Below the pieces are notes generated by a model, which worked only from the letters and a program-made list of their open reading frames with translations, was not told where the DNA came from and ran no database searches. Positions 45,321 through 63,800 of a DNA stretch of 64,000 nt are shown in pieces (position 1 is the stretch's first letter; each line of letters starts with the position of its first letter). The stretch comes from Candidatus Aminicenantes bacterium UBA6072 (lineage in GTDB: Bacteria > Acidobacteriota > Aminicenantia > UBA2199): assembly GCA_002436105.1 (NCBI GenBank), contig DIXU01000003.1, forward strand, positions 107,773 to 171,772, read 5' to 3'. The position numbers and the translations under genes were made by a program.

Positions 45321-45322
45321 CC

Positions 45323-47185: not shown

Positions 47186-47186
47186 C

Positions 47187-48025: not shown

Positions 48026-49384
48026 TCAAGAAGAGGCCAATTGCCCGGTCCGTGCCGCGATCTCGACGGGAATGACGGCCGGAACGGATCCCTTTTCATG
48101 GAACCAGGTGATCAATTCCCTTTTCAGGTCAAAAAACAGCCGATATTTCCCAGGAGGCAGGGTTAAGGACAGTTCGGTCCGGAAGGCGAACGTCTCGCCC
48201 ACGGCGACATCCTTGGGGATGACGATCTCGCCCAGTGCGGGGTTCAGCAGGCTTCCGGATTCGTCCAGCAGCTGGATGCCGATGGCGATGCGATGGCTCA
48301 AGCCCTTGGTATGCCAGGTGAAATTGCATTCATTGGTCAATTGGATGTCCAGCCCCAGCTTGGCCGCGCCGGCAATGATTTTGCTCGCGCCGCTGACCTG
48401 GATCCGGCCCCGGTAAACGAGAGGAGAGAAAACGATATCGCTTTTCCAGGCCCCTTTTTTAACCGCGTTGCCCTCCTTTTTGAACGTGACCGCCAGGGAG
48501 GTGAACACGGAGTTCAGGAAGCGCAGTATCACATGGGGGGACTTGAACACTTCCTGGGGCAGCTTGACCCAATTGTGCAGATAATGATCCTCGATCCTCA
48601 GGTCCATCCCGCTTTCCGCCAATAGGAATCCGTTCCTTTCGAACAGGTCAAGGACTTCGTTGACGGAAAAAATCCTGGTGTTGGGCACGCGGCCAGCCAG
48701 CCGATTCAGCCGGATCTCGGTCGTGATCGTGCATGCCCCGCCCGGCTTCAATACGCGGTACATTTCGGCGATCGCCTTTTCGATCTGGCGGAGACCGCCG
48801 AAATGCTCGATGGAAGACGCCGAGAAAACGAAATCAAAGGAGTTGTCGGCGAATTGCAGTTCCAGGGCGTTCATGCGCCTGAAATCAAGGTTTTCCCGGG
48901 GATACAGGAAAGGGGCGTATTTCTCGGGAATGTCGGGAATATCGGGCTCGTCCTCGCCCCCCAGGAAACTTCCCTCATAGAGATCGACGGCGACCATCTT
49001 TTTTATCTTGTAGGCCAGGTAATACAAAATCTGCTCCCGGCCGGCGCCGATGGCCAGGCCGCGGTTATCGGGATGCAGATAGCCCAGCTTTTTCAAGACA
49101 TAGATGATCTGGGTGAATTCCCATATCTTGCGATGGAAGCTCTCCTCATTCATGGAGAAAATGATGCGGAAATCCTCCAGAATGTCATGCCATTCCCGGT
49201 TGCAGAGATCGGCCACATGAGGGATCTTGTTCAGCGGCACGGCCGCGCGAGCCCTTTCTTCCTTCAGCTCCCGCCAATTTACGACCGGGTACAGCATCCT
49301 GTCGAATGGCCGCAGGAAGGCGTTGTAGGCCTTGTTGGAAAAAAGAACGCGGTTGATTGCCGTTTTCAGCTTTTGTGCAGGCAT
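48026..49384 (-). CDS. SAM-dependent methyltransferase with a C-terminal beta-rich domain
   Basis: GLAIGAGREQ (motif I), FDFVFSASSIEHFGG and VLKPGGACTITTE. The start is uncertain (49384 or 49441). Confidence 0.7.
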   Translation of the reverse strand: MPAQKLKTAINRVLFSNKAYNAFLRPFDRMLYPVVNWRELKEERARAAVPLNKIPHVADLCNREWHDILEDFRIIFSMNEESFHRKIWEFTQIIYVLKKLGYLHPDNRGLAIGAGREQILYYLAYKIKKMVAVDLYEGSFLGGEDEPDIPDIPEKYAPFLYPRENLDFRRMNALELQFADNSFDFVFSASSIEHFGGLRQIEKAIAEMYRVLKPGGACTITTEIRLNRLAGRVPNTRIFSVNEVLDLFERNGFLLAESGMDLRIEDHYLHNWVKLPQEVFKSPHVILRFLNSVFTSLAVTFKKEGNAVKKGAWKSDIVFSPLVYRGRIQVSGASKIIAGAAKLGLDIQLTNECNFTWHTKGLSHRIAIGIQLLDESGSLLNPALGEIVIPKDVAVGETFAFRTELSLTLPPGKYRLFFDLKRELITWFHEKGSVPAVIPVEIAARTGQLASS

Positions 49385-49536
49385 TGCGAGGCAAAATAGC
49401 ACAAAGCCGGCACGGTTGTCAAGCCGGCGCGATGGGGGCATCCTGACGGCGGCTCCAAGGCGCGAATGGGCGCGGAGCGCCGGCCCGGATCGCGGATATT
49501 CCCTTTCGCCCCCGATTTTGCTATAATATTTCCGTC

Positions 49537-51252
49537 ATGATCCCCAACAGCATCAGGATTTTTTTTATTCTCGCCCTGCTTTTCATCATCTTTTTCTCCT
49601 TCTCCGTCGACCTGGCCGACATCAAGCACGGAGGCTTTTTTTCCGACGAATCGACCTATTACGGCATTATCCAGAGCCTGGCCCTGGACGGCGACCTGAA
49701 GTACGAGCGCAAGGACATCCAGCGCATCCGGGAAAAATTCTGGGTCGGCCCCATGGGCCTGTTCCTGAAAAAAGGCAGGGACGGCCAGCTCTATTTCGCC
49801 AAGTCGTTCATCTATCCCCTGCTGGCGGCTCCTTTCTTCCGCCTGTTCGACGTGCATGGCATCCTGCTGGCCAACGGCCTGATGCTTCTGCTGGTGCTGT
49901 GGATGGGCTTCCTGCTCCTGCGCCGGTACCACCCGACGCAACAAAGCTTCTCCTTCACGCTCATCTACCTCTTTTCCAGCGTCGGCTTCATCTACATCTG
50001 GTGGACCACCGCCGATTTGTTCAATTTCTTCGTCAACTTCGCCGCCCTGTTCTTCTTTTTCTTTGCGTTCAAACGACCGGCCTGGAGCTACCTGGCCGCC
50101 CCGCTTTTCGCGGCCGCCGTCTTTTCCAAGCCCAATAACCTGCTGCATATCGGCGTTCTTTTCCTGCTGCTGCTCTACCGGAAGGAATGGAAGCGCTTCA
50201 TCGTCCTGGGCCTGCTTTGCGCGCTGTTCCTGGCCGGCCTGTTCGCCTTCAATTTCCTCCAGACCGGGGAGATCAACTACCAGGGCGGCGAGAGGAACTC
50301 GTTCTACGGAAAATTCCCGCTGGAAAGGGAGGATTTCACCTTCAGCAGCGGCAACCAGATGAGTACCGACACCTACTGGAGCCGCTTCTACCTGAGCCCG
50401 GAGATCGCCCTGTACAACCTGTTCTATTACATCTTCGGGCGCTTCACCGGCATGTTCATCTATTTCTTCCCCGCCGTGTTCATCCTGCTGCTCTTCTGTT
50501 TCCAGAAAAAGAGCAGCGAAGATTGGTTCCTGCTGGCCGGCATCATCCTGGCCATCCTGTGCTATGTCCTGCTCATGCCCGACAACTATTTCGGGGGCGG
50601 CGGATCCCTGGGCAATCGCTATTTCATGAACATCTTTCCCCTTTTCTTCTTCCTCGGCCACCGGAAGCGCAATTTCCGGTTTTCCATCGTCCCGCTGTTC
50701 GCCGCCGTGATCTTCCTCTCGCCGGTGTACATGGACTCGCTGTCCCATTCCGCCTCGCCGCGCTATCCGGGGGTCACCTTCCCCAGCCGGCTGTTTCCCG
50801 CCGAGAAGACCCAATACAGCACGCTGCCCAGCAACACCAATCCCAGGGCCTTCAATAAAAAGATCGGCGACCAATACACGCTGTTCATGCTCAATGACAG
50901 CTACAACCCGATCGAGGGCGATTTCTTCTGGACCAAAGCGGATCAGGAGTTGGAGTTCTTTCTGCTGGCTCCCCGCCGGGTCCGGTCCTTCGTGGTGCAA
51001 CTGAAGAACATTCCCAAGCCCAACCAGGTTTCCCTGGCGATCGAGCACAAGCGGCACAGGGTGTATATCGAGCCCGGAGGGGTGCGGTCGGTCGCTTTCA
51101 GCAAGGTGCCCGGCCTGCGCATCGATTCGCGGCGTTTTCTTTATCTGTTCAAGATCAGGAGCGACCGCTCCTTCTGTCCCTACTTCGAAGCGGCCGGTTC
51201 ACGTGACTTGCGCAAGCTGGGGGTACAGACCCGCATCCAGCTCCTGTACTGA
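49537..51252 (+). CDS. Polytopic membrane protein, GT-C-like glycosyltransferase
   Basis: 571 aa, more than 10 TM helices. First-loop motif SDESTYYGIIQSLALDGDL parallels the motif in the 53256 protein. Extended -10 TGcTATAAT (49522-49527) lies 9 nt upstream of the ATG. Confidence 0.65.
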   Translation: MIPNSIRIFFILALLFIIFFSFSVDLADIKHGGFFSDESTYYGIIQSLALDGDLKYERKDIQRIREKFWVGPMGLFLKKGRDGQLYFAKSFIYPLLAAPFFRLFDVHGILLANGLMLLLVLWMGFLLLRRYHPTQQSFSFTLIYLFSSVGFIYIWWTTADLFNFFVNFAALFFFFFAFKRPAWSYLAAPLFAAAVFSKPNNLLHIGVLFLLLLYRKEWKRFIVLGLLCALFLAGLFAFNFLQTGEINYQGGERNSFYGKFPLEREDFTFSSGNQMSTDTYWSRFYLSPEIALYNLFYYIFGRFTGMFIYFFPAVFILLLFCFQKKSSEDWFLLAGIILAILCYVLLMPDNYFGGGGSLGNRYFMNIFPLFFFLGHRKRNFRFSIVPLFAAVIFLSPVYMDSLSHSASPRYPGVTFPSRLFPAEKTQYSTLPSNTNPRAFNKKIGDQYTLFMLNDSYNPIEGDFFWTKADQELEFFLLAPRRVRSFVVQLKNIPKPNQVSLAIEHKRHRVYIEPGGVRSVAFSKVPGLRIDSRRFLYLFKIRSDRSFCPYFEAAGSRDLRKLGVQTRIQLLY

Positions 51253-51281
51253 GCCATTTGCCGGTGCCGTCCCGGCCGGGA

Positions 51282-51310
51282 TTGACAGGCCGCCGCGATT
51301 CTCCTACCAT
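51282..51310 (+). promoter_or_regulatory. Sigma70-type promoter, (near-)leaderless geometry
   Basis: TTGACA (51282-51287), N17, TACCAT (51305-51310), then 9 nt to ATG 51320. Confidence 0.5.
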
Positions 51311-51319
51311 GGAGCCAGG

Positions 51320-52066
51320 ATGAAGATCCAGGCCGACTTGCATATCCATTCGACCCTCTCGCCCTGTGCTTCCCTGGAGATGTCGCCGGCGGCGATCGTG
51401 CGCCGGGCCGCGGAACTCGCCCTGGACCTCATCGCCGTCACCGACCACAACAGCATGGAAAACGGCTTCACGGCGGCGGCGCTGGGAGAAAAAGCGGGAA
51501 TCAAGGTACTCTACGGCATGGAGGCGCAGACACGCGAAGACGTCCATGTGCTGTGCTATTTCGAGGACCGCCTCCAGGCCGAGCGTTTCAACCGGCACAT
51601 CTATGCGCTGCTGCCCGACACGCCGAACCATCCCGATTATTTCGGCGACCAGGTAGTGGTCGACGAGGAGGACAATATCGTCCGCCACGAGGAGAAACTC
51701 CTGCTCAACGCACTGGACATCTCCGTTCCCGAACTGGTCGACCTGGCGCGCCGCCATGACGGCCTCGTCGTCCCGGCCCATGTCGAGGCCCCGCCCTACG
51801 GCCTGCTGGTCAACCTGGGCATGGTGCCGGCCGAGCTCGAGGGCTCTCCGCTTGAGGTAGCCTGCGATACGGCCAGGGAACGCGTGCTGCGGGATTTTCC
51901 AGCCCTGGCCGGCCATCCGCTGCTTCGCAACTCCGACGCCCATTTTCTCAAGGATATCGGCAGGGCACGCACGGTATTCTCGGCTCCGTCACCGGCGCTG
52001 CCCCTGCTCCTGGCGGCGGCGAAAGCCGGGACGTTCCATGTCGTATGCCCGGAGTCCCATGGTTGA
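51320..52066 (+). CDS. PHP-domain phosphoesterase
   Basis: MKIQADLHIHSTLSPCA, IAVTDHNS and VVPAHVE metal-ligand motifs. Confidence 0.8.
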   Translation: MKIQADLHIHSTLSPCASLEMSPAAIVRRAAELALDLIAVTDHNSMENGFTAAALGEKAGIKVLYGMEAQTREDVHVLCYFEDRLQAERFNRHIYALLPDTPNHPDYFGDQVVVDEEDNIVRHEEKLLLNALDISVPELVDLARRHDGLVVPAHVEAPPYGLLVNLGMVPAELEGSPLEVACDTARERVLRDFPALAGHPLLRNSDAHFLKDIGRARTVFSAPSPALPLLLAAAKAGTFHVVCPESHG

Positions 52067-52613
52067 AGACCTTTGTTTTCACCTGGTGGACCTTGTGCAG
52101 AATTCCGTTGCCGCCGGCGCCCGCGTCATCCGCGTGCAGATCCGGGAATCCCGCGCTTCCGACACCCTGGAACTGGAAGTGGCTGACGATGGGCGCGGCA
52201 TGGATGACCGGACCCTGCTCCAGGCGCAGGACCCGTTCTTCACCAGCAAGGGCTACAAAAAAGTCGGCTTGGGCATCCCGCTGCTCAAGGCCACCACCGA
52301 AGCCTGCCGCGGCGATTTCGCCATCGCCAGCCGTCCGGGACGCGGCACGCGGATCCGGGCCAGCATGCAGAGGAGCCACCTGGACTGTCCGCCCCTGGGC
52401 GACCTCGAGGGGACCCTGCTCTCCTTGCTGGTCAGCCTGGATGCGGTGGACTTGCGCTTTTCCTTCCAGGGGGGGCGCGGGTCGTTCGCCGTCGCCTCGG
52501 CCGAGGCGCGCGCCCACGCCGGCGACCTGCCCCTGTCCCATCCTGATGTCTATCGCTTCCTCAAGGAATTCATCCGTTCCGGCCTGGGAGGGCTGCTGGC
52601 CCCGGCGCCATGA
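52059..52613 (+). CDS. Stand-alone GHKL (histidine-kinase-like) ATPase
   Basis: N-box DLVQNSVAAGA, G1 ADDGRGMD, G2 KVGLGIPLL. 8-nt overlap with the PHP gene (ATGGTTGA). Confidence 0.75.
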   Translation: MVEDLCFHLVDLVQNSVAAGARVIRVQIRESRASDTLELEVADDGRGMDDRTLLQAQDPFFTSKGYKKVGLGIPLLKATTEACRGDFAIASRPGRGTRIRASMQRSHLDCPPLGDLEGTLLSLLVSLDAVDLRFSFQGGRGSFAVASAEARAHAGDLPLSHPDVYRFLKEFIRSGLGGLLAPAP

Positions 52614-52750
52614 GCCGCCGGCGGCGGCGCCGCCTGGTTGATTCCGTTTTCTCCCCTGCGTTCCCCTTTCACGCGGATCCATCCTCCCCGGGCACCGGCG
52701 GATTCCGGCGGAATTGTCCCCGGCCGGGATTGTATGCTACAATGGCGGCC

Positions 52751-53230
52751 ATGGGCTTCGACAAAGACATCCTCATCGAAATCCTGAAAAATCTCGCCCT
52801 GTTCAGCGAGTTGAACTTCGGCGCCGTCAAGGAGCTGGCCTACCTTTTTTCCGAGCGGGTCTTCCAGGGCGGCGAGTCCATCTTCGAGGAGAACGAACCG
52901 GGCGATTCGCTGCTGGTGATCCTTTCCGGCGAGGTGCGCATCACCCAGCGCGCCGACGTCCACGGCGAGGAGACCCTGACCGTCCTAAAGAAAGGCGATT
53001 TCTTCGGCGAAATGGCCCTGCTGGAGGACCTGCCGCGCAGCGCCACCGCCATCGCCCACAGCGACACGTTCATCATGGAGATCAGCCGCGAGCGCTTCAT
53101 GCGCTTCGTGGAGAAGGATCCCGCCAGCGGCGTGAAGATCCTGATCACCCTGGCCCGCAGCCTCTCGGCGCGGCTGCGCGAGGCCGACAACAAGATCAAG
53201 GCCTACGTCAATCTCAGCCAATGGATCTGA
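52751..53230 (+). CDS. Stand-alone cyclic-nucleotide-binding (CAP effector) domain protein
   Basis: GDFFGEMALLEDLPRSATAIA phosphate-binding cassette. No DNA-binding domain. TACAAT (52738-52743) lies 7 nt upstream of ATG 52751. An alternative start is 52742. Confidence 0.85.
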   Translation: MGFDKDILIEILKNLALFSELNFGAVKELAYLFSERVFQGGESIFEENEPGDSLLVILSGEVRITQRADVHGEETLTVLKKGDFFGEMALLEDLPRSATAIAHSDTFIMEISRERFMRFVEKDPASGVKILITLARSLSARLREADNKIKAYVNLSQWI

Positions 53231-53255
53231 CCCTGCGCTTCTTTCAGCAGCCAGG

Positions 53256-55388
53256 ATGAAAAGAGACGCCCATTCCGGCTGGCAGCGCCTGCTGCCGAGC
53301 CTCGCGGGTGCCGCCGCACTGCTGGCCACCTGGGCGCTGGGCGACGGCGGGCTGTTCCTGTTGCTGTGTTTCGGCGCCGCGATCGCCGGCATTGAATACG
53401 GCTGGCGATTCCTGTCCGGCCCCGGCCCGACGCCTTACCAGTTCATGCTTTTCTCGCCCCTGCTGCTGGTGCACTATGCCTCGATCGGCGATTTCCGCAT
53501 CCGCCTGGCCTGTTTCTTCATGATCACCTGCGTCATTACCCTGGCCCTGCGCGCCCCCAGGCGCCGGCCGAAGCTCTCCATGGCCGGCATCCGGCCCTGG
53601 CAGGCCTGGGCGCTCGCCTTGCTGACATCCATGCTGGCCGCTTTCCTGCTTCACGCCCAGGGCATCCAGCTCTCCGGCGACGAACCCCACTACGTCATGA
53701 TCTCCCAGAGCCTGGTAGAGGACGGCGATTTCGACCTGAAGAACAACCTGGAGCAAAAGAAGTATTTCTCCTACCTGCCGGTGGAGCTCCGCTTTCACGG
53801 GGCGATCCATTCCGGCCGCTACCGTTCCTTTCACCTTCCCGGCCTCTCGTTTCTCCTGGCTCCCTTCTTTTTCCTGTTCAAGCTCCTGGGCGGTCTGATC
53901 CCGGGCAGCCTCTATTTCCGCCTGGCGGCCGCGCTGATCAACTCGCTTTTCTCGCTCGCTCTTTTCCTGATCCTGCGCCAGGCCTGGCCGGAAAAGGACA
54001 ACGGCGCTTTCTACTGCTTTTTCCTGTGCACGTTCCCGCTGTGTTTCCATGCCGTGCACCTGTTCCCCGAATTGCCCGCCGCCGCCTTGACCCTGTACGC
54101 CTACATTCTCGGACGCGACCAGAGGCGCTATGCCCTCGCCGGTCTGCTGCTGGCCGGCACGGCCTGGCTGCACCTGAAATACTCCATTCCCGCCCTGGTG
54201 CTGGCCCTGTTCCTCGGCGCCCGCATCGGGAGGGAAGGCGGCCCGCGCCTGAAGCAGCTGGCGCGGCTGCTGGCCGCCCCGGCCCTGAGCCTGGCGCTGC
54301 TGGGGCTGTACAGCCGCATCCTCTACGGCTCCTTCGACCCCCGCGTCATTTCCCCGGAGAAGAACTTTCTGGCCATTCCCCTCCATTTCCGGCTCGAGAC
54401 GCTGCTCTCCTTCTTCCTTGACCAGCGCGACGGCCTACTGGTCTACGCGCCTCTCTTCTTGCTGCTCTTCCTGGCCTGGCGCAGGGACGTCCGTGCCGGT
54501 ATCCGCGATTTCGGCCTGCTTTCCACACTGTTTTTTTCCTACATCCTGTTCCACGCCTTCACCACCGTGCGCGGCGGCTATTCGCCGGCGGCGCGGCCCG
54601 TTCTTTTCGTCCTGTGGATCATGTGCGTTTTCCTGGTGGCCGTTTACAGGAATTCGTCCTCGGGCATGCTCCGGGCCCTTTTCAGAATGCTGGCCGGGAT
54701 GACGGCCTTCGCCACGGTCTGGTTCATGTACTATCCGTTGTTCCTGTACCAGCCGGTTACGCGCGAGGTGAGCCAGCGGGCCTCCTCCCTGCTGTGGTTC
54801 CTGAGCAGCGAGGCAATCGACCTGGCATCCCTGTTCCCTTCCTTCCTGAAGCAAAGCAACTCGGGCTACTGGCCGAACTGGGCCTGGCTGGGCTTGCTGG
54901 CCGCCGCGCTGGCGGTTTATTATTCCGGGAGCGCGCGGCCATCCCGGCCCCGGGCCGCCCGGGGCGTGTTCGCCGCCCTGGGCCTCGGGCTGCTGTTCCT
55001 GTTATGTTATTTCCCCCATGTGCTCCTGCAGACCCGCCATGCCGCCGGCGGACTGTCTTTTTTCTGCAATTCGAGGAATTTCGTATTCCGCCCCGACATG
55101 AGGGCTTTCCGCGTCCTGGCCGGCCAGGACTATGACCTGTACATCGACCTGAAGGGCAGCGCGGCAACCGGGATGGACCTGCATGTACTGGATGGGGATC
55201 AGGTGGCGCTGAAGGTGCGGAACGGCCGAAACCTGCTGCTGGAGGCCCAACGTTCCCCAAAGGAACGGCTGGCGTTTCCCCTGAGCCGACTGAAGAGATT
55301 CTCGCTGGCGAAAAGGGAATTGATCCACATCGGCCTGGAAACCCGCGCCCTTGCTCCCCAGGCCATGTTCTGGCTGGAGTTCAGGTAG
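53256..55388 (+). CDS. Large polytopic membrane protein, GT-C-like
   Basis: 710 aa, about 14 TM helices. Loop motif SGDEPHYVMISQSLVEDGDFDL. Soluble C-terminal roughly 130 aa. Confidence 0.65.
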   Translation: MKRDAHSGWQRLLPSLAGAAALLATWALGDGGLFLLLCFGAAIAGIEYGWRFLSGPGPTPYQFMLFSPLLLVHYASIGDFRIRLACFFMITCVITLALRAPRRRPKLSMAGIRPWQAWALALLTSMLAAFLLHAQGIQLSGDEPHYVMISQSLVEDGDFDLKNNLEQKKYFSYLPVELRFHGAIHSGRYRSFHLPGLSFLLAPFFFLFKLLGGLIPGSLYFRLAAALINSLFSLALFLILRQAWPEKDNGAFYCFFLCTFPLCFHAVHLFPELPAAALTLYAYILGRDQRRYALAGLLLAGTAWLHLKYSIPALVLALFLGARIGREGGPRLKQLARLLAAPALSLALLGLYSRILYGSFDPRVISPEKNFLAIPLHFRLETLLSFFLDQRDGLLVYAPLFLLLFLAWRRDVRAGIRDFGLLSTLFFSYILFHAFTTVRGGYSPAARPVLFVLWIMCVFLVAVYRNSSSGMLRALFRMLAGMTAFATVWFMYYPLFLYQPVTREVSQRASSLLWFLSSEAIDLASLFPSFLKQSNSGYWPNWAWLGLLAAALAVYYSGSARPSRPRAARGVFAALGLGLLFLLCYFPHVLLQTRHAAGGLSFFCNSRNFVFRPDMRAFRVLAGQDYDLYIDLKGSAATGMDLHVLDGDQVALKVRNGRNLLLEAQRSPKERLAFPLSRLKRFSLAKRELIHIGLETRALAPQAMFWLEFR

Positions 55389-55391: not shown

Positions 55392-57155
55392 CTACTCCGC
55401 CCGGGGGCTTTCCCGGCCGGCGCTGTCCACCGCGCTGACCGCGTACTCAAACACGCGCGCCGTTGCTCCGAGAGTGCGGTCCAGGTACTCGAAACTCGTC
55501 TGGGTGCCTGCCGGGACGGTGTGAAAATGGCTGAAGCCGCCCATGCCGATCTCGCGGCGGTAGATCTTGTAGGAAACGATCACGGCTCCGATCTGTTCAT
55601 TGCGCGGATTGCGATCCCAGTTGATCCGGTACAGGTACTCGACGGAAAACAGATTGCGGTTTTCATGGCGCTGGAATTTCAGGTTCAAGGGAGGCGCCAG
55701 GCCGAAGATCTCGACTTCACCGGTGGCGGTGGCCGTGGCGCCGTCGTCATCGGTCACCTTCAGGGTGATCTCGAAGCGGCCCTCCCTGTTGTACACGTGG
55801 CTGACGATCTTGCCCGTGCCGGAGCCGCCGTCGCCGAAATCCCATTGATAGCTGGAGATCGTGCCATCGCTGTCCTTGGATTTGCTGGCGTCGAAAGCGA
55901 CCGACACGGGATAAAGCCCGCCAGTCGGTGAGAACATGAAGAATGCCGTGGGGGGGACATTGGGGTCGGGTTCGGGCGCGGGGCCGGGCGGATTCGGATC
56001 GGGGCTCTCGCCCTGGCTCCAGGTGAGGTAGACGGCCGAGGTCTGATGGGCCACCGCGACCGCAGCCTTGCCCGACGAGGACAGGGCGCTGCTGGAAAAG
56101 CCCGGGATGATCCCCGTCGTCGGGATCTTCTTGTGGCCGGTCCATTGCCCGTTCTGCCTCCAGTTGAAATAGACCGTGCTGCCCGCCCATTCGCTGACGA
56201 AGACATTCGCGCTGTTGAGGGCGCTCACGCAGATCTCATGGTAGGCCCGGGCGCCGTCATTGGAGATCAGGAAGCGGCTGGAAAAGCCGCTGCCGGTCCA
56301 GTACTTGTAGTAGGTGTCGCGGTTGACGCCGATGTTGTAGTCGTTCATCATGATGATGTGCAGCAGGCGGGTGGGGTCCACGGTGAGTCGCGGGCGATGG
56401 TTGCCGTCCTTGACATCAATGGCGCTCCCCCAATTCGCGCCCTGCTTGTTGGAGCGCCGGCTGTAGGCGATCGTGTAATTGCTGCCCCAAAGCTGCTGCC
56501 AGGCGATATGGACATAGCTGGAGTCGACGGTCACGTCGGGGTGCTTGGAGCGCCCCGTCATGGGCCAGGATTCCATGGTAACGGAGCCGCCGTACTTGCT
56601 GATGAACTGGCAACGGGCGGCGGGCCAGATCATGAAGGCGATGAACACGTTGTCGTTCTCGTCGGCGGCCATGCGCAGGTCCTCGACCTTGCGCGTGACG
56701 AAGCCGCCGGGGATGGTGCCGGTGATGTTCAGCGTGCGCAGGGTCGATACGGCCGACCAGCCGGAACCGTTGTTGTAGCGGTATTTGACGTACTGGGTGT
56801 CGGCACTGTAGCTCGACGCCTCGATCCAGACCGCGTGCATATGGCCCTTGCGGGTGATGTAAAGGAAGGCTTCATAGCCGATCAGCGATGTTTCGCTGAT
56901 ATTGCGCTCGAAAGCGACCCGGCTGCCGTCGTAGGAGCTGAGATGGATGTCGCGACCGGCCTGGTAGAGCACGTACATCTTCCCCGCCGGGGAGAACTGG
57001 ACGATGGGCTTGTAATAGGCCGTCGTGGCCGATGCGACGATGCGCACCGGGCTGGACCAGGGAAAAAGCATCTGGGCCCCAACGAGGAAAAATAACAGGA
57101 CGGGGACAACAAGCGACGATTTCGCTGCATGTCGGGTGGCCGTGTCGTGATTCAT
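55392..57155 (-). CDS. Secreted propeller-like, PKD and Fn3 protein (paralog 2)
   Basis: N-terminal anchor, repeated hVxW....Y blades, PKD domain (FDASKSKDSDGTISSYQWDFGDG...VTDDDGA), and a C-terminal Fn3-like domain. Clearly paralogous to 60444..62252. Confidence 0.75.
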   Translation of the reverse strand: MNHDTATRHAAKSSLVVPVLLFFLVGAQMLFPWSSPVRIVASATTAYYKPIVQFSPAGKMYVLYQAGRDIHLSSYDGSRVAFERNISETSLIGYEAFLYITRKGHMHAVWIEASSYSADTQYVKYRYNNGSGWSAVSTLRTLNITGTIPGGFVTRKVEDLRMAADENDNVFIAFMIWPAARCQFISKYGGSVTMESWPMTGRSKHPDVTVDSSYVHIAWQQLWGSNYTIAYSRRSNKQGANWGSAIDVKDGNHRPRLTVDPTRLLHIIMMNDYNIGVNRDTYYKYWTGSGFSSRFLISNDGARAYHEICVSALNSANVFVSEWAGSTVYFNWRQNGQWTGHKKIPTTGIIPGFSSSALSSSGKAAVAVAHQTSAVYLTWSQGESPDPNPPGPAPEPDPNVPPTAFFMFSPTGGLYPVSVAFDASKSKDSDGTISSYQWDFGDGGSGTGKIVSHVYNREGRFEITLKVTDDDGATATATGEVEIFGLAPPLNLKFQRHENRNLFSVEYLYRINWDRNPRNEQIGAVIVSYKIYRREIGMGGFSHFHTVPAGTQTSFEYLDRTLGATARVFEYAVSAVDSAGRESPRAE

Positions 57156-57161
57156 GGAGTA

Positions 57162-57190
57162 ATTATAGAACAATTGGCGGCGCTTTTCAA
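57162..57190 (-). promoter_or_regulatory. Sigma70-type promoter, leaderless geometry
   Basis: Minus strand reads TTGAAA (57190-57185), N17, TATAAT (57167-57162), then 6 nt to ATG 57155. Confidence 0.5.
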
Positions 57191-57325
57191 TTTTCGCCCG
57201 CGGAAAAAGGACGCCCCCCGCAGCCGGCGGACCGCGCACCCAAGCGGGTGCCGGCCCGCTTCACTGGCAACGGAAGGAGGACTCGGCCCATGGCGCCGCC
57301 GCTCGCGGCGCCGGGCCGGATCCGT

Positions 57326-60300
57326 TTACAGCAGTATGCCAAAACCCAGGTTCAGCTCCAGGCCACCCAGGTTCAGCGGGTCATCCAGATCGGAGTCGGG
57401 ATAGATATCCTTGCTGGCCATGTTGAATTTCAGGAACAATTGGCCGAATATCTTCTTGGACAACCGGTAGTAGCCTCCGGCCAGGGCGTTGAAGCCGATG
57501 ACCGTCGCCTTGATTTCCTCGATCGGGTTGTCATCCTTGACCAGGAAGACATTGGCACCGGCGCCGGCAAAGGCGCTGAGCTTGCCTTTTTCCATCAGGT
57601 AATAGCGCACGGACGCCGCCAGGGGGGTCATCCGGAACTTCATCTCCACCGGGCTCCATGCCGGCTGGTTGTTCTTCGCCGCCAGCCCGCCGCTGACCCA
57701 GAAATCCATCTTTTGGGCGAAGCGGAATGCGATCGAACCGCCAAAGCCGCTCAAGGAGACGTAGGCGTCCTTGAATTTCTGGTCGAACATCATGTAGTAG
57801 GTGCCGTGCAAGGCGATTCTCAGGCGCTCGCCGAACATGGGCGCCTTTTCAGCCACGACCGGCTTTTCCTCTCTGACCGCGGTTTTGAAGACGATGGTCG
57901 AGACCACCCGTTCATCCTGCAGTTCAAAGCTGATCTTCTCCACGTTATATTTCAGGACCAGGTCGATCAGTTGTTTCTGCGTTTCCAGCCCGGAGTAGAT
58001 CTTCAGCACCGGCTGCTTTTTTATCTGGGTTCTTTCATAACGCTCGCATGGCAGGGTTTCCCTGTGGGCCTCGATATAGGCGATGAATTCATCGATCCCG
58101 GGCAGCTGCGGCACGGCTTCCTTCGCCTCTTTCTCCTTGCGCCGGGCCTCGGCCGCCGCCTTCTCCTTCGCCAGTTTTTCTTCGTCGACGAGGGTGACCT
58201 TCTTGCCGTCGGCCAGGCATTCGAAGCCGGAAACGATCAGCGGCATGCCCGCGCCCAGCCCGGCGGCCACATGTGTCCGGCCGGCCTCGCTCGCGCCGCG
58301 GGTGACATAGAGCTTTTTTGCCTTCTTCTTCTCGGCCACGTAGACGAAATCGCCGAGGCTGTCCTGGAAAAGCACGCCGCTGGGCACGGTGACCGCATCC
58401 GCGTGCTCGGCTTTCAGCTTGCGGGCGGTGTACGTTTTCCCGGCTGCGATCCGCCCGGAGCCGTTATCCAGGCGCAGCTGCACCTTGGCGTCGCGGACAT
58501 CGATGACTTCGGCGATCCATTCATCGTCCGATCCCTCGAACTTGCCGGCGATCCTTTCACCGCTGACGAAACGGCTGGGGTCCGTCACGGTGAGCGTGAC
58601 CCGCAGCTGTTGTTCGGTCAAGATCTCCAGCAGGACGGCCTGGCCGACGACATCGGCCCCTGCCGCCACCTGGATGTTCTGCACGATCCCCGCGACCGGA
58701 GCGGCCAGCGACTGGATGAATGGCGCGGCCTTCTCCTCCAGCCGCTCCAGCGCTTTCTGGTAGGCCAGCTCGGCCGCCCGGATGGCCTTTTCGTTCTTCA
58801 CCTTCGCTTCCTGGCGCGCCAGCAGCGCTTCCCTCCTGCGCCCGGCCTCCTGGCGCAGGGCGGTGACCGCCTCGTCCTCTCCCACGCTCAGGACGAGCAG
58901 TTCCTGGCCCTGCGTCACCAGGGAGCCTTCGCTCACCTTCAGGGCGTGAACCAGCCCGGCAACGGGCGCGGCGACGGCGATCGTTTCCGGCAAGGCCGGT
59001 GCTGAATCATACCCGTATTCGGAAAATGTTTCCGCCCGGGTCAGTTCGGTCAGGACCGGGACTCTCTTGGCGCACGCCGGTTGGGCTGCGGCAGCCTGCC
59101 GGGCCTCCAGCCTGGCCTGGGCCCTGGCTTTTTCCTCTTCTTCCCTTCTGGCCTTTTCCGCGGCGGCCTTGGCCCTTTTCTCCTCTTGCTTCCTGGCCTT
59201 CAGTTCGGCCGCGGCCGCTGCCGCGGCCTGCTTGGCCTCCAGCTTGGCCCGGGCCCTGCTTTCCTTCTCTTCATCCTTGCTGGCCTTGGCTGCCGCTGCA
59301 TCGTCCGCGGTCGGTTGCGCCTTGCTCGCGGCGCTGAGCCGGGCTTGCTCCATGGCCAGCTGCTCCGGATTGATGACGCGGATCTTCTTTCTGTCGGCAA
59401 GGCAATCGAAACCGGAAACGATGAGCTGCATGCCCGGGACCAGGCCCTTCTCGATCAGGGTCCGGCCAACTTCGCTCGCCCCGCGGGTCACGTACAGCTT
59501 TTTTGCATTCTTCTTCTCGGCCACGTAAACGAAATCGCCCCGGCTGTCATGGAACAGGGCCGCGTCGGGAATGGCGACGGCGTCGGCATGCTCGGCTTTC
59601 AGCGTTTTCACTTCAAAGGCCATGCCTTCTTTCAGCAGGCCGGCGGCGTTGTCCACCATGAACGTGACCAGGCCGTCGCTGACGGCGATGACCTCGGCCC
59701 GGCCCTGGAAGTTTTCGGCGCTGCCGTCCAATTTCTGGCCGACGGCGAAGGTTTCTCCTTCCTGGCCGCGGCGGTCAAGGGTGTAGATCATGCGCCCGGG
59801 GTTGGCGATCTCCAGCAGCACGGCATCGGCAGCGACCTCGCTTCCCAGGTCCTGGACAAAATGGACCCTGCCGGTCGCCGGCGCCGCGACGCCCTTGCGG
59901 CTGGATGCCTTTTTCTCTTCCAGCAGGGCCAACGCCTCGTTGTATTTCTTTTCCGCCGACTGAATGGCTCTTTCGCTCTTCTCCTTCCAGTTGAGGCGGG
60001 CGGTCCAGACCTTCTTGCTGGCTGCCACGTCCGCTTCGAGCTTGGCCAATTCCTCGCCGGAGATGGTCTCGATGGCCAGTATCTCCTGCCCGGCAAAGAC
60101 CAGCGAGCCTTCGCCGACCCTGACTTCGGCCAGTTTTCCCGCCGCCGGGCTTTTCACCGCCACGGTCCCGGGCTGCGCCGACAGGGAATGGCGGTGGTAT
60201 TCAAAAAAAGTTCCCGCGCTGACCGTTTCCAGGGCCACGGCCACCTTTTTGGGACATTTCACGGAGATGCTTTCATTTTCCTGGGGCACGTTCCTTTCCT

Positions 60301-60376
60301 GGGTCGTGCCGGCGACCCGTGCCTGGAGGGAGAGGCAAAGCAGAAAACAGCCCAATAGCAACAATGATTTTTTCAT
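57326..60376 (-). CDS. Fusion protein: signal peptide, two tandem membrane-fusion-protein (HlyD/RND-adaptor-like) modules, K/A/E-rich linkers, C-terminal beta-barrel-like domain
   Basis: Two roughly 290-aa modules (aa 55-345 and 448-738 of the track ORF) each have a lipoyl-like half, a coiled-coil hairpin, a second lipoyl half and a beta-barrel (…AIPDAALFHDSRGDFVYVAEKKNAKKLYVTRG… versus …TVPSGVLFQDSLGDFVYVAEKKKAKKLYVTRG…). The last roughly 170 aa show alternating hydrophobic beta-strand patterning. Start at MKKSLLLL with AAGGAG SD. Confidence 0.75.
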   Translation of the reverse strand: MKKSLLLLGCFLLCLSLQARVAGTTQERNVPQENESISVKCPKKVAVALETVSAGTFFEYHRHSLSAQPGTVAVKSPAAGKLAEVRVGEGSLVFAGQEILAIETISGEELAKLEADVAASKKVWTARLNWKEKSERAIQSAEKKYNEALALLEEKKASSRKGVAAPATGRVHFVQDLGSEVAADAVLLEIANPGRMIYTLDRRGQEGETFAVGQKLDGSAENFQGRAEVIAVSDGLVTFMVDNAAGLLKEGMAFEVKTLKAEHADAVAIPDAALFHDSRGDFVYVAEKKNAKKLYVTRGASEVGRTLIEKGLVPGMQLIVSGFDCLADRKKIRVINPEQLAMEQARLSAASKAQPTADDAAAAKASKDEEKESRARAKLEAKQAAAAAAAELKARKQEEKRAKAAAEKARREEEEKARAQARLEARQAAAAQPACAKRVPVLTELTRAETFSEYGYDSAPALPETIAVAAPVAGLVHALKVSEGSLVTQGQELLVLSVGEDEAVTALRQEAGRRREALLARQEAKVKNEKAIRAAELAYQKALERLEEKAAPFIQSLAAPVAGIVQNIQVAAGADVVGQAVLLEILTEQQLRVTLTVTDPSRFVSGERIAGKFEGSDDEWIAEVIDVRDAKVQLRLDNGSGRIAAGKTYTARKLKAEHADAVTVPSGVLFQDSLGDFVYVAEKKKAKKLYVTRGASEAGRTHVAAGLGAGMPLIVSGFECLADGKKVTLVDEEKLAKEKAAAEARRKEKEAKEAVPQLPGIDEFIAYIEAHRETLPCERYERTQIKKQPVLKIYSGLETQKQLIDLVLKYNVEKISFELQDERVVSTIVFKTAVREEKPVVAEKAPMFGERLRIALHGTYYMMFDQKFKDAYVSLSGFGGSIAFRFAQKMDFWVSGGLAAKNNQPAWSPVEMKFRMTPLAASVRYYLMEKGKLSAFAGAGANVFLVKDDNPIEEIKATVIGFNALAGGYYRLSKKIFGQLFLKFNMASKDIYPDSDLDDPLNLGGLELNLGFGILL

Positions 60377-60443
60377 GAAGACTCCTTGGCTCATGTGAAT
60401 AGAATTAATTCCCGATCATTGACCGCGGCCTGAATGCGACGGT

Positions 60444-62252
60444 TCAATTGCCGGTATTGACGTACGGGCTCTGGTGGTCAGCGGCGTCGACCGCGGCCAC
60501 CGCATAGACGTAGTTCTTGCCCTCTTCGACGTTGACGTCGGCGAAGGCGAAGCGGTCCGCGCCCACCGTGCCCTTGAGCACATACGTGCTGTCGTCGCTG
60601 CCGGCGACCTTGCTGAAAATGCGGTAGGAAGCGATATCGTAGCCCTCCTGGCTGTTCCTGGGATTCGCCTTCCAGGTGACCACATAGCCTTTGCGATCGT
60701 AGATCAGGGTGGTGATGCGCTCCGGCTTCGCCGCGACGTCCAGCGCCGAATACAGGGCGGCGACCTTGACGGTCTTGTTGGCGATGCCGCGTCCGCCCTT
60801 GTCATCGATGGCGGTCAGCCGGATCGTCATGTTGCCCCATTTTCTGAGGAACGCGTATTCGCTGGTGACGCCTTCCACGGTGACGTTGTCGTTGACGATC
60901 CGCCACTCGTACCTGACGATCGTGCCGTCGCTGTCGTAGCTTTCCGAAGCGTCCAGCTTGATCGTCTCGCCCCAGAAGAGCGTGTCCTTGTCGGTCTTGA
61001 TCTTGGCCACCGGCAGGGAGTTCACGACCAGCTTGCCGCTGAGCAGCAGCTCGATGCTGTCGCCGGCGGCATAGGAGATGGCGCCGATGCCGAGGGAGTT
61101 CAGGTCGCATTCGCCGAAGGAGGACCAGGCCTTGATGCGGTTGATGACCCCCAGGCCGCCCCATTTGCCGTTGCGCATCCAGTTGAAAAAGTTGATGGCG
61201 CCGCCCGTCCAGGTCTGGGAGTGGATCAGCACGTTGTTGGCGTCCAGGGGGGCGATGGCCGGGGTGTGGTACAGGTTCGTATTGGTATCAGAGACCATCC
61301 AGCTGCCCGAGAAGGCCGCGCCCTTCCAGACACGGTAGTGGAGATCGCGGGCGGTGCTGTTCTCCCCGTCCTTCATGTAGACCATGTGCGGCACCTGGTT
61401 GCGGTCCACGCGGATGAAGGGGCGGTGGCCGCCGCTGAAAACGACCTTCTGCAGCAGGCTCCAGGAGGAGCCCGGGGTGTTCTTGCGCCGCGCGTAGCGG
61501 ATGGTGTAATCCGATCCCTCCAGCTGCTGCCAGGTCAGGTGGACGAAGTTGTCGTCGGCGGCCACGCTGGAGTGCTTGCTGCGCCCGCCCATGGGGAAGG
61601 GATCGGAGTAGATCTTGCCGTCGTACATGCTCACGGCGCCGCAGCGGGCGATGGGCCACATCATGTAGGTGACGAAGACGTTGTTCTCGTCATCGACGGC
61701 CAGGCGCACGTCGTCCAGCTTTTCCGGGTTCCAGCCCCCGGTCGTGCCAATGATGTTCAGCGTCCTCAGGGTGGTGATCGGCGACCACTCGGCACCGTCG
61801 AAATTACGGTACTTGATATTCTGGATATTGGCGTTGGCGCTCAGGGCCTCGGCCCAGATGATGTGGATCCTGCCGTCGGGGGTGATGGCCATGTCGGGCT
61901 CGTAGGCCATCTGGTTGTCCTCGGAGACGTTCTTGACCATGACCGGCTTGACGCCGTCGTAGCTGTAGAGCTTGATCGAGCGCTTGTTGGTCTTTTGGTC
62001 GTCGATATTGTCCTTGAAGCAGACATACACCTTGCCGGACGGGTGGAAACGCACGATATTCTTCTCGTTATAAACGTGCAGCGCTTCCTTGGCGATGGTC
62101 ACCGGTGCCAGCCAGCTGATGGCGGCGACGTTCGGTGCCAGGTCCAGCGTACGTTCGTCCTGGGCCGCCGCCTTGGTGAAACGGGAGCCGGCCAGGAAGA
62201 CCAGGGACAGGGCGGCCAGCGCGAGGCGGCCTGCTTTTTTGGTATCCATCAT
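60444..62252 (-). CDS. Secreted propeller-like, PKD and Fn3 protein (paralog 1)
   Basis: 602 aa with a signal peptide. Conserved blocks shared with 55392..57155 (LRTLNI.GT, DDENNVFV.YMMWP.ARC, GGRSKH, VH..WQQL.GS.YTI.Y.RR.N). PKD and Fn3-like C-terminus. Confidence 0.75.
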   Translation of the reverse strand: MMDTKKAGRLALAALSLVFLAGSRFTKAAAQDERTLDLAPNVAAISWLAPVTIAKEALHVYNEKNIVRFHPSGKVYVCFKDNIDDQKTNKRSIKLYSYDGVKPVMVKNVSEDNQMAYEPDMAITPDGRIHIIWAEALSANANIQNIKYRNFDGAEWSPITTLRTLNIIGTTGGWNPEKLDDVRLAVDDENNVFVTYMMWPIARCGAVSMYDGKIYSDPFPMGGRSKHSSVAADDNFVHLTWQQLEGSDYTIRYARRKNTPGSSWSLLQKVVFSGGHRPFIRVDRNQVPHMVYMKDGENSTARDLHYRVWKGAAFSGSWMVSDTNTNLYHTPAIAPLDANNVLIHSQTWTGGAINFFNWMRNGKWGGLGVINRIKAWSSFGECDLNSLGIGAISYAAGDSIELLLSGKLVVNSLPVAKIKTDKDTLFWGETIKLDASESYDSDGTIVRYEWRIVNDNVTVEGVTSEYAFLRKWGNMTIRLTAIDDKGGRGIANKTVKVAALYSALDVAAKPERITTLIYDRKGYVVTWKANPRNSQEGYDIASYRIFSKVAGSDDSTYVLKGTVGADRFAFADVNVEEGKNYVYAVAAVDAADHQSPYVNTGN

Positions 62253-62415: not shown

Positions 62416-63762
62416 TCATAAATATCCCAGCGTCTCGAGGCTCTTCTTCTCTTTTTCAGATAGTTTCCCCTGCGGCTGGCTCGCCTTGCCGCTCAAGTAA
62501 TTGCCGTGCGCGCGAAGGAACGACTCGAAGCGGGCTGCCAAGACCCGCGCGGCCGCCGCCTGGGAGCTGAAGAGGTTCTTCGTTTCCCGGGGATCGCTGA
62601 AATAGTCGAAAAAATGATCGGGGGGCAGGTGCAGCCGCTTGGACAGCCTGGGATTGATCTTGACGTAGTGCTGCCTGCCCCTGACCACGGCGTGGGAACT
62701 CGTGCCCAGGATGTAGAGCAGGCGATCTTTCTGGGGTTGCAGCAGGCTGACGCCCTGGAGCGGGTACGGCGGCTCGAGCCGCAGCAGCTGCAGGACGGTG
62801 GGATAGATGTCCATGAGGCTGACCGGGGTGCGGACGGTGCGCGGCTTGCGGCCGGGGATGCGCATCATCAGCGGGATCCGTGCCCCCGCGGTGAAGGTCA
62901 GCGGGCCATGGTCAAAAAACAGGTTCCGTTCCCCCAGGTCCTCCCCATGATCGGCGGTGACGATCACGACGGTATCCTTGTCCAGCCCCAGTCGGGAAAC
63001 GGCATCCAGTACCTTGCCGATCTCGGCATCCACGTAGCTCACGGCGCCGTCATAGCGGGCGATGGCATGGCCCTCGCTGAAATCGCCGAGCTGCTCCAGC
63101 TCGCGCCGGACCGGCCCGGGCATGATGCAGGGATTCAGGGCGCGCAGGTTGCGCCCTCTCGGGCGCTGGGGGATGAATTCCGCGGGCGGGACATAGGGGG
63201 TATGCGGATCGATGTAGTTGACCCAGAGAAAGAAGGGCTTTTCGTGCTTCGCCCCGAGAAAGTCAAGCACCCGGGAGGTGATGAACGGGGTGGATTCGGG
63301 CTTGGTTTCGGCATGGGTCCAGGCCTCGGTGTAGTCGGCAAACCCCTGGTCGAACTGGAAGAAGCGCGAGAGGTTGGCGTTGTCGACCACCGCCGCCGTA
63401 TGGTAGCCGTTGATCGTCAGCAATTCGGCCAGGGTGAGGAATTTTTCGTTCAGCGGGCCGCGGTTGGGCTTGGTCCTGTGGATGCTGGGATGCAGGCCGG
63501 TCAGCATCGAGGCGAAGGAGGCCGATGTCTTGGGAATGGTGCAGAAGGCGTTCTCGAAGAACAGGGATTTCTTCGCGAATTCATCGATGCGCGGGCTGGC
63601 CGGATGCGGATAGCCGTAGCAGCCCAGGTGGTCCGCCCGCAGCGTGTCCACGGCCAGGATGACGATGTTGAATTTTTTTCCGGCCTCGGGTTCCCGGCCG
63701 CAGGATGACAGGAACATTGCGGAAACCACGAGTATTAGAACCGAGAGTGCTGTCTTGAACAT
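62416..63762 (-). CDS. Sulfatase-like hydrolase/transferase (alkaline-phosphatase superfamily) lipoprotein
   Basis: Lipobox LSSC, metal site VILAVDTLRADHLGCYGY, and TADHGE. There is no C/S-x-P-x-R. The nucleophile position aligns to Thr in PKTSASFASMLTG. Start at MFKTALS behind the promoter. Confidence 0.85.
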   Translation of the reverse strand: MFKTALSVLILVVSAMFLSSCGREPEAGKKFNIVILAVDTLRADHLGCYGYPHPASPRIDEFAKKSLFFENAFCTIPKTSASFASMLTGLHPSIHRTKPNRGPLNEKFLTLAELLTINGYHTAAVVDNANLSRFFQFDQGFADYTEAWTHAETKPESTPFITSRVLDFLGAKHEKPFFLWVNYIDPHTPYVPPAEFIPQRPRGRNLRALNPCIMPGPVRRELEQLGDFSEGHAIARYDGAVSYVDAEIGKVLDAVSRLGLDKDTVVIVTADHGEDLGERNLFFDHGPLTFTAGARIPLMMRIPGRKPRTVRTPVSLMDIYPTVLQLLRLEPPYPLQGVSLLQPQKDRLLYILGTSSHAVVRGRQHYVKINPRLSKRLHLPPDHFFDYFSDPRETKNLFSSQAAAARVLAARFESFLRAHGNYLSGKASQPQGKLSEKEKKSLETLGYL

Positions 63763-63770
63763 GAGTGGAT

Positions 63771-63800
63771 ATTGTATCATGCTATAATAAAACCTGTCAA
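63771..63800 (-). promoter_or_regulatory. Sigma70-type promoter, leaderless geometry
   Basis: Minus strand reads TTGACA (63800-63795), N18, TACAAT (63776-63771), then 8 nt to ATG 63762. Confidence 0.45.

Follow-up and report, generated by a model that had tools for sequence, protein, structure and literature searches.

The locus described here raises the question of what a single polypeptide might do in the cell envelope when it joins two efflux-type adaptor modules to an outer-membrane barrel and its gene has no pump gene beside it. The gene lies in a 64,000-nucleotide stretch of DNA from Candidatus Aminicenantes bacterium UBA6072 (assembly GCA_002436105.1, contig DIXU01000003.1, positions 107,773 to 171,772), which as a whole is called the window below, and is referred to as the MFP-barrel gene after its two membrane fusion protein (MFP) modules. 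An earlier note, made from the sequence alone, had read the product as two MFP modules, charged linkers, a domain of unknown type and a C-terminal barrel, and had taken it for an outer-membrane-anchored protein that spans the periplasm or forms a surface scaffold, and not for an efflux component. We found this architecture well supported: the protein is very probably exported by the Sec pathway and held in the outer membrane by its barrel, with its MFP modules carried by stiff helical spacers within the periplasm. What it does there is less certain. We give a probability of about 0.45 to the reading that the protein, anchored in the outer membrane, serves a lineage-specific surface-glycopolymer module as periplasmic adaptor or scaffold and is not a conventional efflux adaptor.

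Alignment of the protein with itself showed 45% identity over 297 aa between residues 49-342 and residues 442-737 (BLASTP E 5e-66; residues are counted from the first ATG), and on DNA level direct repeats with a spacing of 1185 nt were found between the modules, the best of which covered 144 nt at 82% identity. This is in agreement with the two tandem, full-length modules and the period of about 1.18 kb proposed before, at coordinates that correspond to aa 55-345 and aa 448-738. In the NCBIfam scan TIGR01730 (RND_mfp) matched in two stretches with 122.8 bits (curated cut-off 94.9), and its match to aa 77-340 covered profile positions 26-321 of 322. Besides, HlyD_3 (45.1, cut-off 22.2) and Biotin_lipoyl_2 (35.9, cut-off 29.8) were found in the Pfam scan, and the stretches of HlyD_3, Biotin_lipoyl_2 and HlyD_D23 in module 2 were located at aa 473-603. 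An AlphaFold2 single-chain model was built on 40 family sequences (mean predicted local distance difference test score, pLDDT, 82.5; predicted template modelling score, pTM, 0.36), in which the pLDDT of sequence blocks was about 85-93 in module 1 and mostly 86-96 in module 2. A Foldseek search against the PDB gave near-full-length matches to TMexC, MexA, AcrA, ZneB, BesA, CusB and MacA (E 7e-18 to 1e-10, probability 1.00), with alignments spanning about 300-345 columns, although the modules are only 13-19% identical to solved adaptors. Since the profile matches, the modelled folds and the near-full-length structural matches agree, both modules are, as modelled, complete four-domain adaptors including the membrane-proximal domain.

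The tip of the alpha-hairpin was shown to be strongly conserved (R133, W136, K137 and K139). The RLS motif (R-x3-L-x6-S) was found in part: R133 was kept in at least 95% of the modules, but the residue at +4 was K137 and that at +11 was I144. The absence of the full motif is weak negative evidence, since the motif, which serves docking to the outer-membrane factor (OMF), is not universal among adaptors (PMC4446572). Two cysteines were present in 57 of 57 family modules, one in an N-terminal 'CPKK' strand and one in a C-terminal 'GFECL' strand; Cys47 and Cys331 bracket module 1, and Cys441 and Cys726 mark the start and end of module 2. Judged from this conservation, the pair probably forms a disulfide that staples the membrane-proximal domain.

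The linkers rich in K, A and E, described before as presumably coiled or extended, were confirmed by their content of E, K, R, A and Q and by the modelled helix. Residues 376-436 between the modules formed one unbroken 61-residue helix (about 9 nm if helical), consisting to 93% of E, K, R, A and Q and containing 13 i/i+4 pairs of opposite charge, and this helix resembles the single-alpha-helix or TolA-domain-II type of spacer. The inter-module linker was found to hold a direct duplication of its own (59085-59306, minus strand; 132 nt or 44 codons, 76% identity), and from this duplication the sequence suggests that the spacer has grown through internal repeat expansion. The unknown domain, estimated at about 90 aa before, had a length of about 70 aa in the model and folded confidently, both in the full chain (block pLDDT about 87-88) and when modelled separately (mean pLDDT 82). 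No match was found when the isolated domain was scanned against Pfam, and a Foldseek search gave nothing significant (best E 0.07, TM-score about 0.5, to the periplasmic domain of XcpY/GspL, ACT-like folds and de novo designs). A function of this middle domain in ring building or dimerisation is speculative.

The C-terminal region of about 170 aa, in which a barrel had been suspected, was modelled as eight antiparallel strands (DSSP on the AlphaFold2 model), with pLDDT mostly 85-96 in blocks of 10 residues. Both termini lie on one face of the barrel, where the turns were of 2, 2 and 4 residues (QK, GK and LSKK); the loops on the opposite face were of 11, 8, 4 and 18 residues. Although the isolated region stayed below the thresholds of the Pfam scan, without a direct match, the assignment as a barrel is supported by profile, homologue and structure evidence. 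The profile of the barrel family matched OmpW (E 7.5e-7), NspA (1e-5) and AlkL (3e-3) in the PDB, and also the N-terminal domain of OprF and OmpX; phmmer connected the region to stand-alone outer-membrane proteins of 180-200 aa that match PF13505 (OMP_b-brl) or PF03922 (OmpW), and several of the fused homologues matched PF13505 or OmpW directly. With OmpW, AlkL and OprG it thus shares the eight antiparallel strands and the short periplasmic turns, and it has close stand-alone homologues, but it carries a periplasmic N-terminal extension of 850 residues and ends in Leu and not in the usual Phe. For the C-terminal beta-signal, which typically closes with an aromatic residue, the usual endings in the family were G-x-x-V-K-F or SYSF, and those of the present protein and its nearest relatives were GFGILL or GIRL. 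The analysis of strand alternation was too crude to tell whether the barrel lumen is hydrophobic like that of OmpW.

Because the number of strands is even and the turns of 2-4 residues lie on the face carrying both termini, the N-terminal 850 residues or so, including the MFP modules, should lie in the periplasm, in line with the canonical topology of outer-membrane proteins. The same placement is indicated by the signal peptide, which is of the signal-peptidase-I type without a conserved lipobox, and by the invariant cysteine pair. The signal peptides of homologues were found to finish in AxA-type cleavage sites, and cysteines within them vary, so that a lipobox is not conserved across homologues; residues 1-45 were of low confidence in the AlphaFold2 model. 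A lipoprotein N-terminus was considered and rejected, since the h-region ahead of Cys16 is too short and Cys16 is not kept in homologues.

Met7 (nt 60376) was the likely start, giving 1016 aa, and gene callers agreed with this on six public contigs with an identical product (P0001), the longest of 224 kb; the limits 57326-60376 and the length of 1016 aa given in the earlier note equal this start. The G+C content at third codon positions (GC3) was 0.80, which is typical for genuine genes of this window with 62% G+C, and codon statistics were uniform from end to end. An artefact, in which either faulty assembly or read-through had joined an adaptor gene to a separate gene for an outer-membrane protein, is effectively refuted. 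Damaged relatives exist, and repeat collapse in metagenome assemblies could explain part of the difference between one- and two-module alleles, but against an artefact stand the identical product on six contigs, the unbroken fusion, which recurs at identities as low as about 25-40% in dozens of assemblies made independently, the uniform codon statistics and the high confidence of AlphaFold2 for the folded domains. Neither of the two findings that the earlier note had named as speaking against its reading, a failure of profile or structure searches to support the folds and a mis-assembly or fusion of separate genes, was borne out. Among the damaged relatives, P0016 (716 aa) lost the frame directly after module 2 through an apparent frameshift and has no barrel, and the gene at locus L019 (10016-11880) is broken into three open reading frames (ORFs); both are perhaps pseudogenes or sequencing errors.

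A word-indexed search gave 41 clusters of homologues, and an exhaustive search with the C-terminal 263 residues gave 179 representatives, 48 of them below 1e-10. Motif mapping divided the family into four architectures: two MFP modules, middle domain and barrel (about 1000 aa); one MFP module, middle domain and barrel (about 625-665 aa); two MFP modules and barrel (about 920-980 aa); and one MFP module and barrel (about 565-600 aa). The middle domain was found to be optional and mobile, being missing in many members and N-terminal in the distant P0067 and P0098. Separate genes were also seen, encoding middle domain and barrel (P0044), the barrel only, or an AMIN domain fused to the barrel (P0110). 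In the long clade modules 1 and 2 were 39-48% identical and the module-2 orthologues clustered together; the duplication of the modules in this clade is old. P0020, P0021 and P0022 were shown to carry independent recent duplications (86%, 83% and 66% identity between modules, respectively), and the single module of P0019 was 95-98% identical to module 1 of the two-module P0003 and P0004. Because of these recent duplications and the near-identical one- and two-module alleles, the module copy number is labile, though repeat collapse during assembly could account for part of this.

A scan of species-representative genomes gave 21 loci, nearly all labelled as Aminicenantes or Acidobacteriota, and the family is confined to these lineages, in about 20 species genomes. 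Judged from this distribution, the window itself most likely derives from a bacterium of the Aminicenantes lineage. Six loci (L008, L009, L015, L018, L019 and L021) were labelled 'uncultured Clostridia', 'Patescibacteria group' or 'Chrysiogenales' and contained orthologues of 50-83% identity within the same synteny, because of which these bins are probably mis-binned or mislabelled metagenome-assembled genomes of Aminicenantes or Acidobacteriota. A scan for related loci with P0055 returned an unrelated Dyadobacter adaptor only. Public annotations of the family read 'HlyD family efflux transporter periplasmic adaptor subunit', 'biotin/lipoyl-binding protein' or 'AcrA / outer membrane protein W'. 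In the literature on adaptors (including dedicated reviews), on Aminicenantes and on outer-membrane tethers, no fusion of an adaptor to an outer-membrane barrel was found described; the fusion is a new architecture of the known MFP superfamily.

The neighbourhood contained a second protein family, here called PROP, two genes of which flank the MFP-barrel gene in the window (Table 1). The two neighbours, described before as paralogous propeller-PKD-Fn3 proteins, showed 34% identity to each other (E about 1e-97) and matched PKD_4 (8e-22 in 55392-57239 and 1.7e-9 in 60444-62252). The propeller is indicated by weak matches of the family-specific N-domain of about 400 aa to BNR_4 or BNR_2 sialidase-like propellers (BNR_4 0.004 in 60444-62252, and up to 6e-7 in PROP family members), and sequence and profile searches of the PDB with the PROP proteins gave matches to the PKD domain only. 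PROP homologues formed 28 clusters that are lineage-restricted like the MFP-barrel family. The comparison of gene neighbourhoods covered the window, six loci for which Pfam annotation was precomputed, another 18 loci whose genes were typed by BLAST, and the distant Aminicenantia locus L029. In the window, L001-L006, L008-L025 and L029, the MFP-barrel gene directly adjoined at least one PROP gene wherever the flank was present, and a PROP partner was present in all of the about 20 loci. In the short clade the partners were PROP relatives of 487-591 aa, sharing chiefly the C-terminal Fn3-like domain.

Where three or more PROP genes were present, extra barrel genes were interspersed among them. 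The order in L005, L015 and L021 was PROP, MFP-barrel, PROP, middle domain plus barrel, PROP, of which the truncated L017 showed the downstream part, and in L029 it was PROP, middle domain-MFP-barrel, barrel, PROP, barrel and then three PROP genes. Since stand-alone barrel genes or genes for middle domain plus barrel alternate with PROP genes in these five loci, the barrel is the constant companion of PROP, and the MFP part is an add-on to the barrel. The PROP proteins of the window, L001-L006 and L029 were compared for motifs. Right behind the signal peptide the mature PROP proteins of the long clade began with a conserved W-x-x-P-[IV]-x-[IV] motif. The C-terminal Fn3-like domain was common to all PROP types, with the motif NRNLF..Y.YR..W..NP.N, and is a candidate for the element by which PROP docks to the barrel or MFP proteins.

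The MFP-barrel and PROP genes are set within a conserved island of genes with predicted functions in surface glycopolymer formation, syntenic in related loci. Conserved across loci were PMT_2 and other polytopic GT-C glycosyltransferases, an NAD-dependent epimerase, a hexapeptide acyltransferase, a carbamoyltransferase with SxtJ and DUF5989, GDSL/SGNH enzymes, methyltransferases, an AsnB-like amidotransferase and enzymes of the sulfatase/phosphotransferase families. NCBIfam gave hints below cut-off to an LA_3751/LA_3752 putative glycosyltransferase, the AZOBR_p60025 cell-surface glycopolymer formation protein and an AftB-like arabinofuranosyltransferase. Pump genes, which had not been recognized nearby before either, were not found: no RND, ABC, MFS or OMF/TolC family was detected among the about 40 ORFs scanned in the 64-kb window (a few small ORFs lay outside the scan), and in the six loci annotated with Pfam no ABC_tran, ACR_tran, MFS or OEP gene was seen up to about 10 kb from the MFP-barrel gene. 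A lone ABC gene in L003, 10 kb away in an iron-uptake cluster beside a TonB-dependent receptor, was unrelated, and the neighbourhoods of the 18 loci typed by BLAST contained island genes only.

An MFP-like periplasmic domain outside drug efflux is known from Alg44 of the alginate system, which belongs to a glycan apparatus with modifying enzymes, is anchored in the inner membrane, contains a PilZ domain and has a GT2 synthase and an 18-stranded porin as partners. The present protein differs from Alg44 by having neither a PilZ domain nor a transmembrane anchor and by its neighbours, which are of GT-C type and not a processive GT2 synthase. As an adaptor or scaffold for a surface-glycopolymer module, the protein would be anchored in the outer membrane by its C-terminal barrel and keep its MFP modules in the periplasm. 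That barrels of this family also anchor other periplasmic modules, such as the AMIN domain of P0110, speaks for this arrangement. In the periplasm the modules may self-assemble, and a ring of six modules would result if three tandem chains or six single-module chains came together. Solved adaptors are hexamers built as a trimer of dimers (PMC4446572), a logic that a two-module chain fits (PMC4446572, PMC13328181). Such a ring or tube would form below the outer membrane, where it might cluster the small barrels and dock PROP partners, coupling the periplasmic assembly or processing of a glycopolymer or glycolipid built by the GT-C enzymes to the outer membrane. The helical E/K/A linkers would then be spacers that fix the periplasmic depth of each MFP ring.

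Several points weigh against this interpretation. The only functional evidence for the presumed ring, for the supposed binding of PROP and for the putative role in glycopolymer formation is the gene neighbourhood. The inter-domain geometry of the model is unreliable (pTM 0.36), and the eight-stranded barrel offers no obvious conduit. The modules retain the complete transporter-contacting architecture, including the membrane-proximal domain, and the residues of the hairpin tip named above are strongly conserved, as would be expected if the modules still dock on a transporter and/or an OMF encoded elsewhere. The protein would in that case be an adaptor of a tripartite pump or of type I secretion acting in trans, its modules assembling with a TolC-like duct and a transporter of the RND, ABC or MFS type. 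The barrel would then replace the usual lipid or transmembrane anchor in the inner membrane, and the tandem modules would form the 'dimer' unit of a 3:6:3 assembly. We consider this unlikely, although it agrees with the full four-domain MFP fold, the TIGR01730 match above cut-off, a hairpin of a length similar to that of AcrA and MexA (helices of 22 and 25 residues) and the highly conserved tip that retains the Arg of the RLS motif. Besides, two modules in one polypeptide, or fused dimeric adaptors, are known, both natural and engineered, from DSY0927 of Desulfitobacterium hafniense, TriAB and tandem AcrA (PMC4446572, PMC13328181). Compared to these, the present protein contains a mostly helical spacer of about 98 residues between its modules followed by an outer-membrane barrel, its copy number is labile and a linked pump was not found. 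The likeness to the adaptors of tripartite pumps (AcrA, MexA, TMexC, CusB, ZneB, MacA, BesA and YknX, in the HlyD superfamily) lies in the full four-domain module and the similar hairpin length, but the present protein has a C-terminal outer-membrane barrel and an invariant cysteine pair in each module, and it keeps the RLS motif in part, the L and S being replaced by K137 and I144. Canonical adaptors attach to the inner membrane through an N-terminal transmembrane helix or a lipidated Cys (PMC4446572). The present protein has neither a transmembrane helix nor a lipobox at its N-terminus; its signal is of the signal-peptidase-I type and its sole membrane element is the barrel. Adaptor genes normally share an operon with their pump, but in the neighbourhoods scanned no cognate transporter or OMF gene was found and the strict linkage was to PROP instead. 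Thus two contextual hallmarks of adaptors, the inner-membrane anchor and the linkage to a transporter, are missing. The geometry also disfavours the canonical pump arrangement, because both ends of a module sit at the membrane-proximal domain, which is here tied toward the outer membrane by short linkers (from module 2, a helical linker of about 29 residues, the 70-residue domain and a linker of 21 residues), and this is awkward for the canonical orientation.

Two further explanations give the MFP modules a mainly structural role. In one, which we regard as quite improbable, the protein is a general tether or spacer of the envelope, in which the outer-membrane barrel and a ruler of single E/K/A helices hold MFP modules that bind an inner-membrane or wall component, setting the periplasmic width and attaching the outer membrane in the manner of OmpM/SlpA, OmpA, Lpp or TolA domain II. 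Outer-membrane tethers are diverse, and the combination of a barrel, a long charged helical stalk and a periplasmic head is shared with such connectors, as is a linker composition like that of periplasm-spanning helices. Module number and linker length differ between close relatives, with the independent duplications and near-identical one- and two-module alleles described above, and the same barrel family is fused to the peptidoglycan-associated AMIN domain in P0110. However, the domains follow each other in the opposite order to those of OmpA, the head has the MFP fold, for which no wall-binding activity is known, and no peptidoglycan-binding domain (OmpA_C, SLH, LysM, SPOR or AMIN) was found in Pfam and NCBIfam scans of the whole protein; nor would a general tether be expected to lie strictly beside PROP genes within a glycan island. 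Far less probable still is a surface-displayed passenger, exported by the barrel in the manner of an autotransporter and serving as a scaffold for the PKD/Fn3 proteins. An N-terminal passenger followed by a C-terminal barrel would fit this, and the PKD and Fn3 domains of the neighbours are typical of extracellular proteins, but the barrel is of the eight-stranded OmpW type and not a 12-stranded type-Va or a 3x4-stranded type-Vc barrel, it has no linker helix plugging a pore, autotransporter families were not matched in the Pfam and NCBIfam scans, and the topology of short turns and long loops places the N-terminus in the periplasm. Because such a barrel has no pore that could translocate a passenger, surface scaffolding, one of the two roles suggested in the earlier note, is disfavoured, whereas the anchoring in the outer membrane and the periplasmic location agree with the eight strands and the short turns at the face of the termini. 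The statement that the protein is not an efflux component draws on gene context and is well motivated but unproven, as a transporter may be encoded elsewhere in the genome.

A bolder form of the interpretation as an adaptor or scaffold for a glycopolymer module, which we hold to be doubtful, is that the MFP-barrel protein, its stand-alone sibling barrels and the PROP proteins together make up an undescribed, pump-independent envelope machine of Aminicenantes. Adaptor rings anchored in the outer membrane on helical rulers would then act as a trans-periplasmic conduit or platform that supplies the outer membrane with a glycolipid or glycopolymer built by the GT-C enzymes, or with PROP proteins that are glycosylated, and the OmpW-type barrels might give lateral hydrophobic entry to its outer leaflet. 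In such a machine the fold of efflux adaptors would be used 'upside-down', with its anchor in the opposite membrane.

The adaptor fold is here anchored in the outer membrane by a barrel of its own, present in variable copy number and linked to beta-propeller genes and a GT-C glycan island and not to a pump. If the functional interpretation is true, the adaptor fold is more widely used, and an unexplored way to bridge the periplasm exists in a poorly known uncultured phylum. The barrel also appears as a modular outer-membrane anchor, which occurs by itself or is joined to the orphan middle domain, to AMIN or to one or two adaptors. When these genes are labelled automatically as 'efflux transporter periplasmic adaptor subunit', the label probably misleads resistome or efflux inventories of metagenomes.

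Table 1. Features of the MFP-barrel gene, its product and the neighbouring genes (nucleotide positions in the window; aa counted from the first ATG of the gene concerned).
Feature	Position (nt)	Strand	Description
MFP-barrel ORF including stop	57326..60394	-	1022 aa counted from first ATG
Sec signal peptide, signal-peptidase-I type	60308..60376	-	aa 7 to about 25-29: MKKSLLLLGCFLLCLSLQA/RVAG
MFP module 1	59369..60256	-	aa 47-342; membrane-proximal, beta-barrel and lipoyl domains and short alpha-hairpin (helices 113-134 and 141-165)
Inter-module linker	59075..59368	-	aa 343-440; 98 residues, 83% E/K/R/A/Q
MFP module 2	58184..59074	-	aa 441-737; same four domains, hairpin helices 508-528 and 535-559
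Second E/K/A-rich helical linker	58097..58183	-	aa 738-766; AlphaFold2 model
Orphan middle domain	57887..58096	-	aa 767-836; alpha-beta-beta-alpha-beta-beta in AlphaFold2 model
OmpW-like 8-stranded outer-membrane beta-barrel	57329..57823	-	aa 858-1022; strands aa 858-1021
Downstream PROP gene	55392..57239	-	615 aa; probable start Met29 (nt 57155) giving 587 aa; signal peptide, propeller-type N-domain, PKD, C-terminal Fn3-like domain
Upstream PROP gene	60444..62252	-	602 aa; same domain order as 55392-57239
Surface-glycopolymer island (predicted)	41707..55388	+	profile scans; syntenic in related loci
PMT_2 GT-C enzyme	41707-43434	+	island member
Methyltransferases, NAD-dependent epimerase, AsnB-like amidotransferase	within 41707..55388	+	island members
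GT-C-like membrane protein	49537-51252	+	571 aa; island member
PHP / HATPase_c / cNMP-binding trio	51203-53230	+	island member
Polytopic membrane protein	53256-55388	+	710 aa; island member
Sulfatase / phosphotransferase-superfamily enzyme	62416..63780	-	Sulfatase 7e-51, weak EptA/LtaS-type matches; island edge; kept in related loci

Within the island, the trio of a PHP-domain phosphoesterase, a HATPase_c protein and a cyclic-nucleotide-binding protein always adjoined the gene of the 710-aa membrane protein in the long clade (L002, L008, L009, L011-L013, L016, L017 and L019), and this trio may be a regulatory unit of the island. A second conserved trio consisted of the carbamoyltransferase, an SxtJ-like membrane protein and a 52-aa DUF5989 protein (L001 17389-19773, L004 18081-20467 and L005 18884-21249), usually located by a GDSL/SGNH enzyme. 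Upstream in the window a response regulator with HD_5 (HD-GYP-like; 17286-18377, plus strand) and a 991-aa Reg_prop/Y_Y_Y/GGDEF diguanylate cyclase (21545-24520, plus strand) were present, and cyclic di-GMP signalling from there could regulate the production of a surface polymer. In the short-clade loci L003 (173-787) and L006 (3281-3931) a separate OMP_b-brl_2 barrel of 204-216 aa was encoded beside a nitroreductase, and its gene lay upstream of the MFP-barrel gene at a distance of about 6-9 kb.

Several long antisense ORFs, including 37608-40688, 57032-59005 and 59081-60358 (all plus strand), showed a G+C content of about 0.9 at first codon positions (GC1) and a GC3 of about 0.65 without Pfam matches, and are artefacts of the high G+C content. 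The first of these, with 1026 aa of the size of an RND pump, was rejected as a pump candidate because it is one of these artefacts (GC1 0.91, GC3 0.65). It lies antisense to the real genes on the minus strand, whose products are an M20 peptidase, a DUF362 protein and an Fe-S protein.

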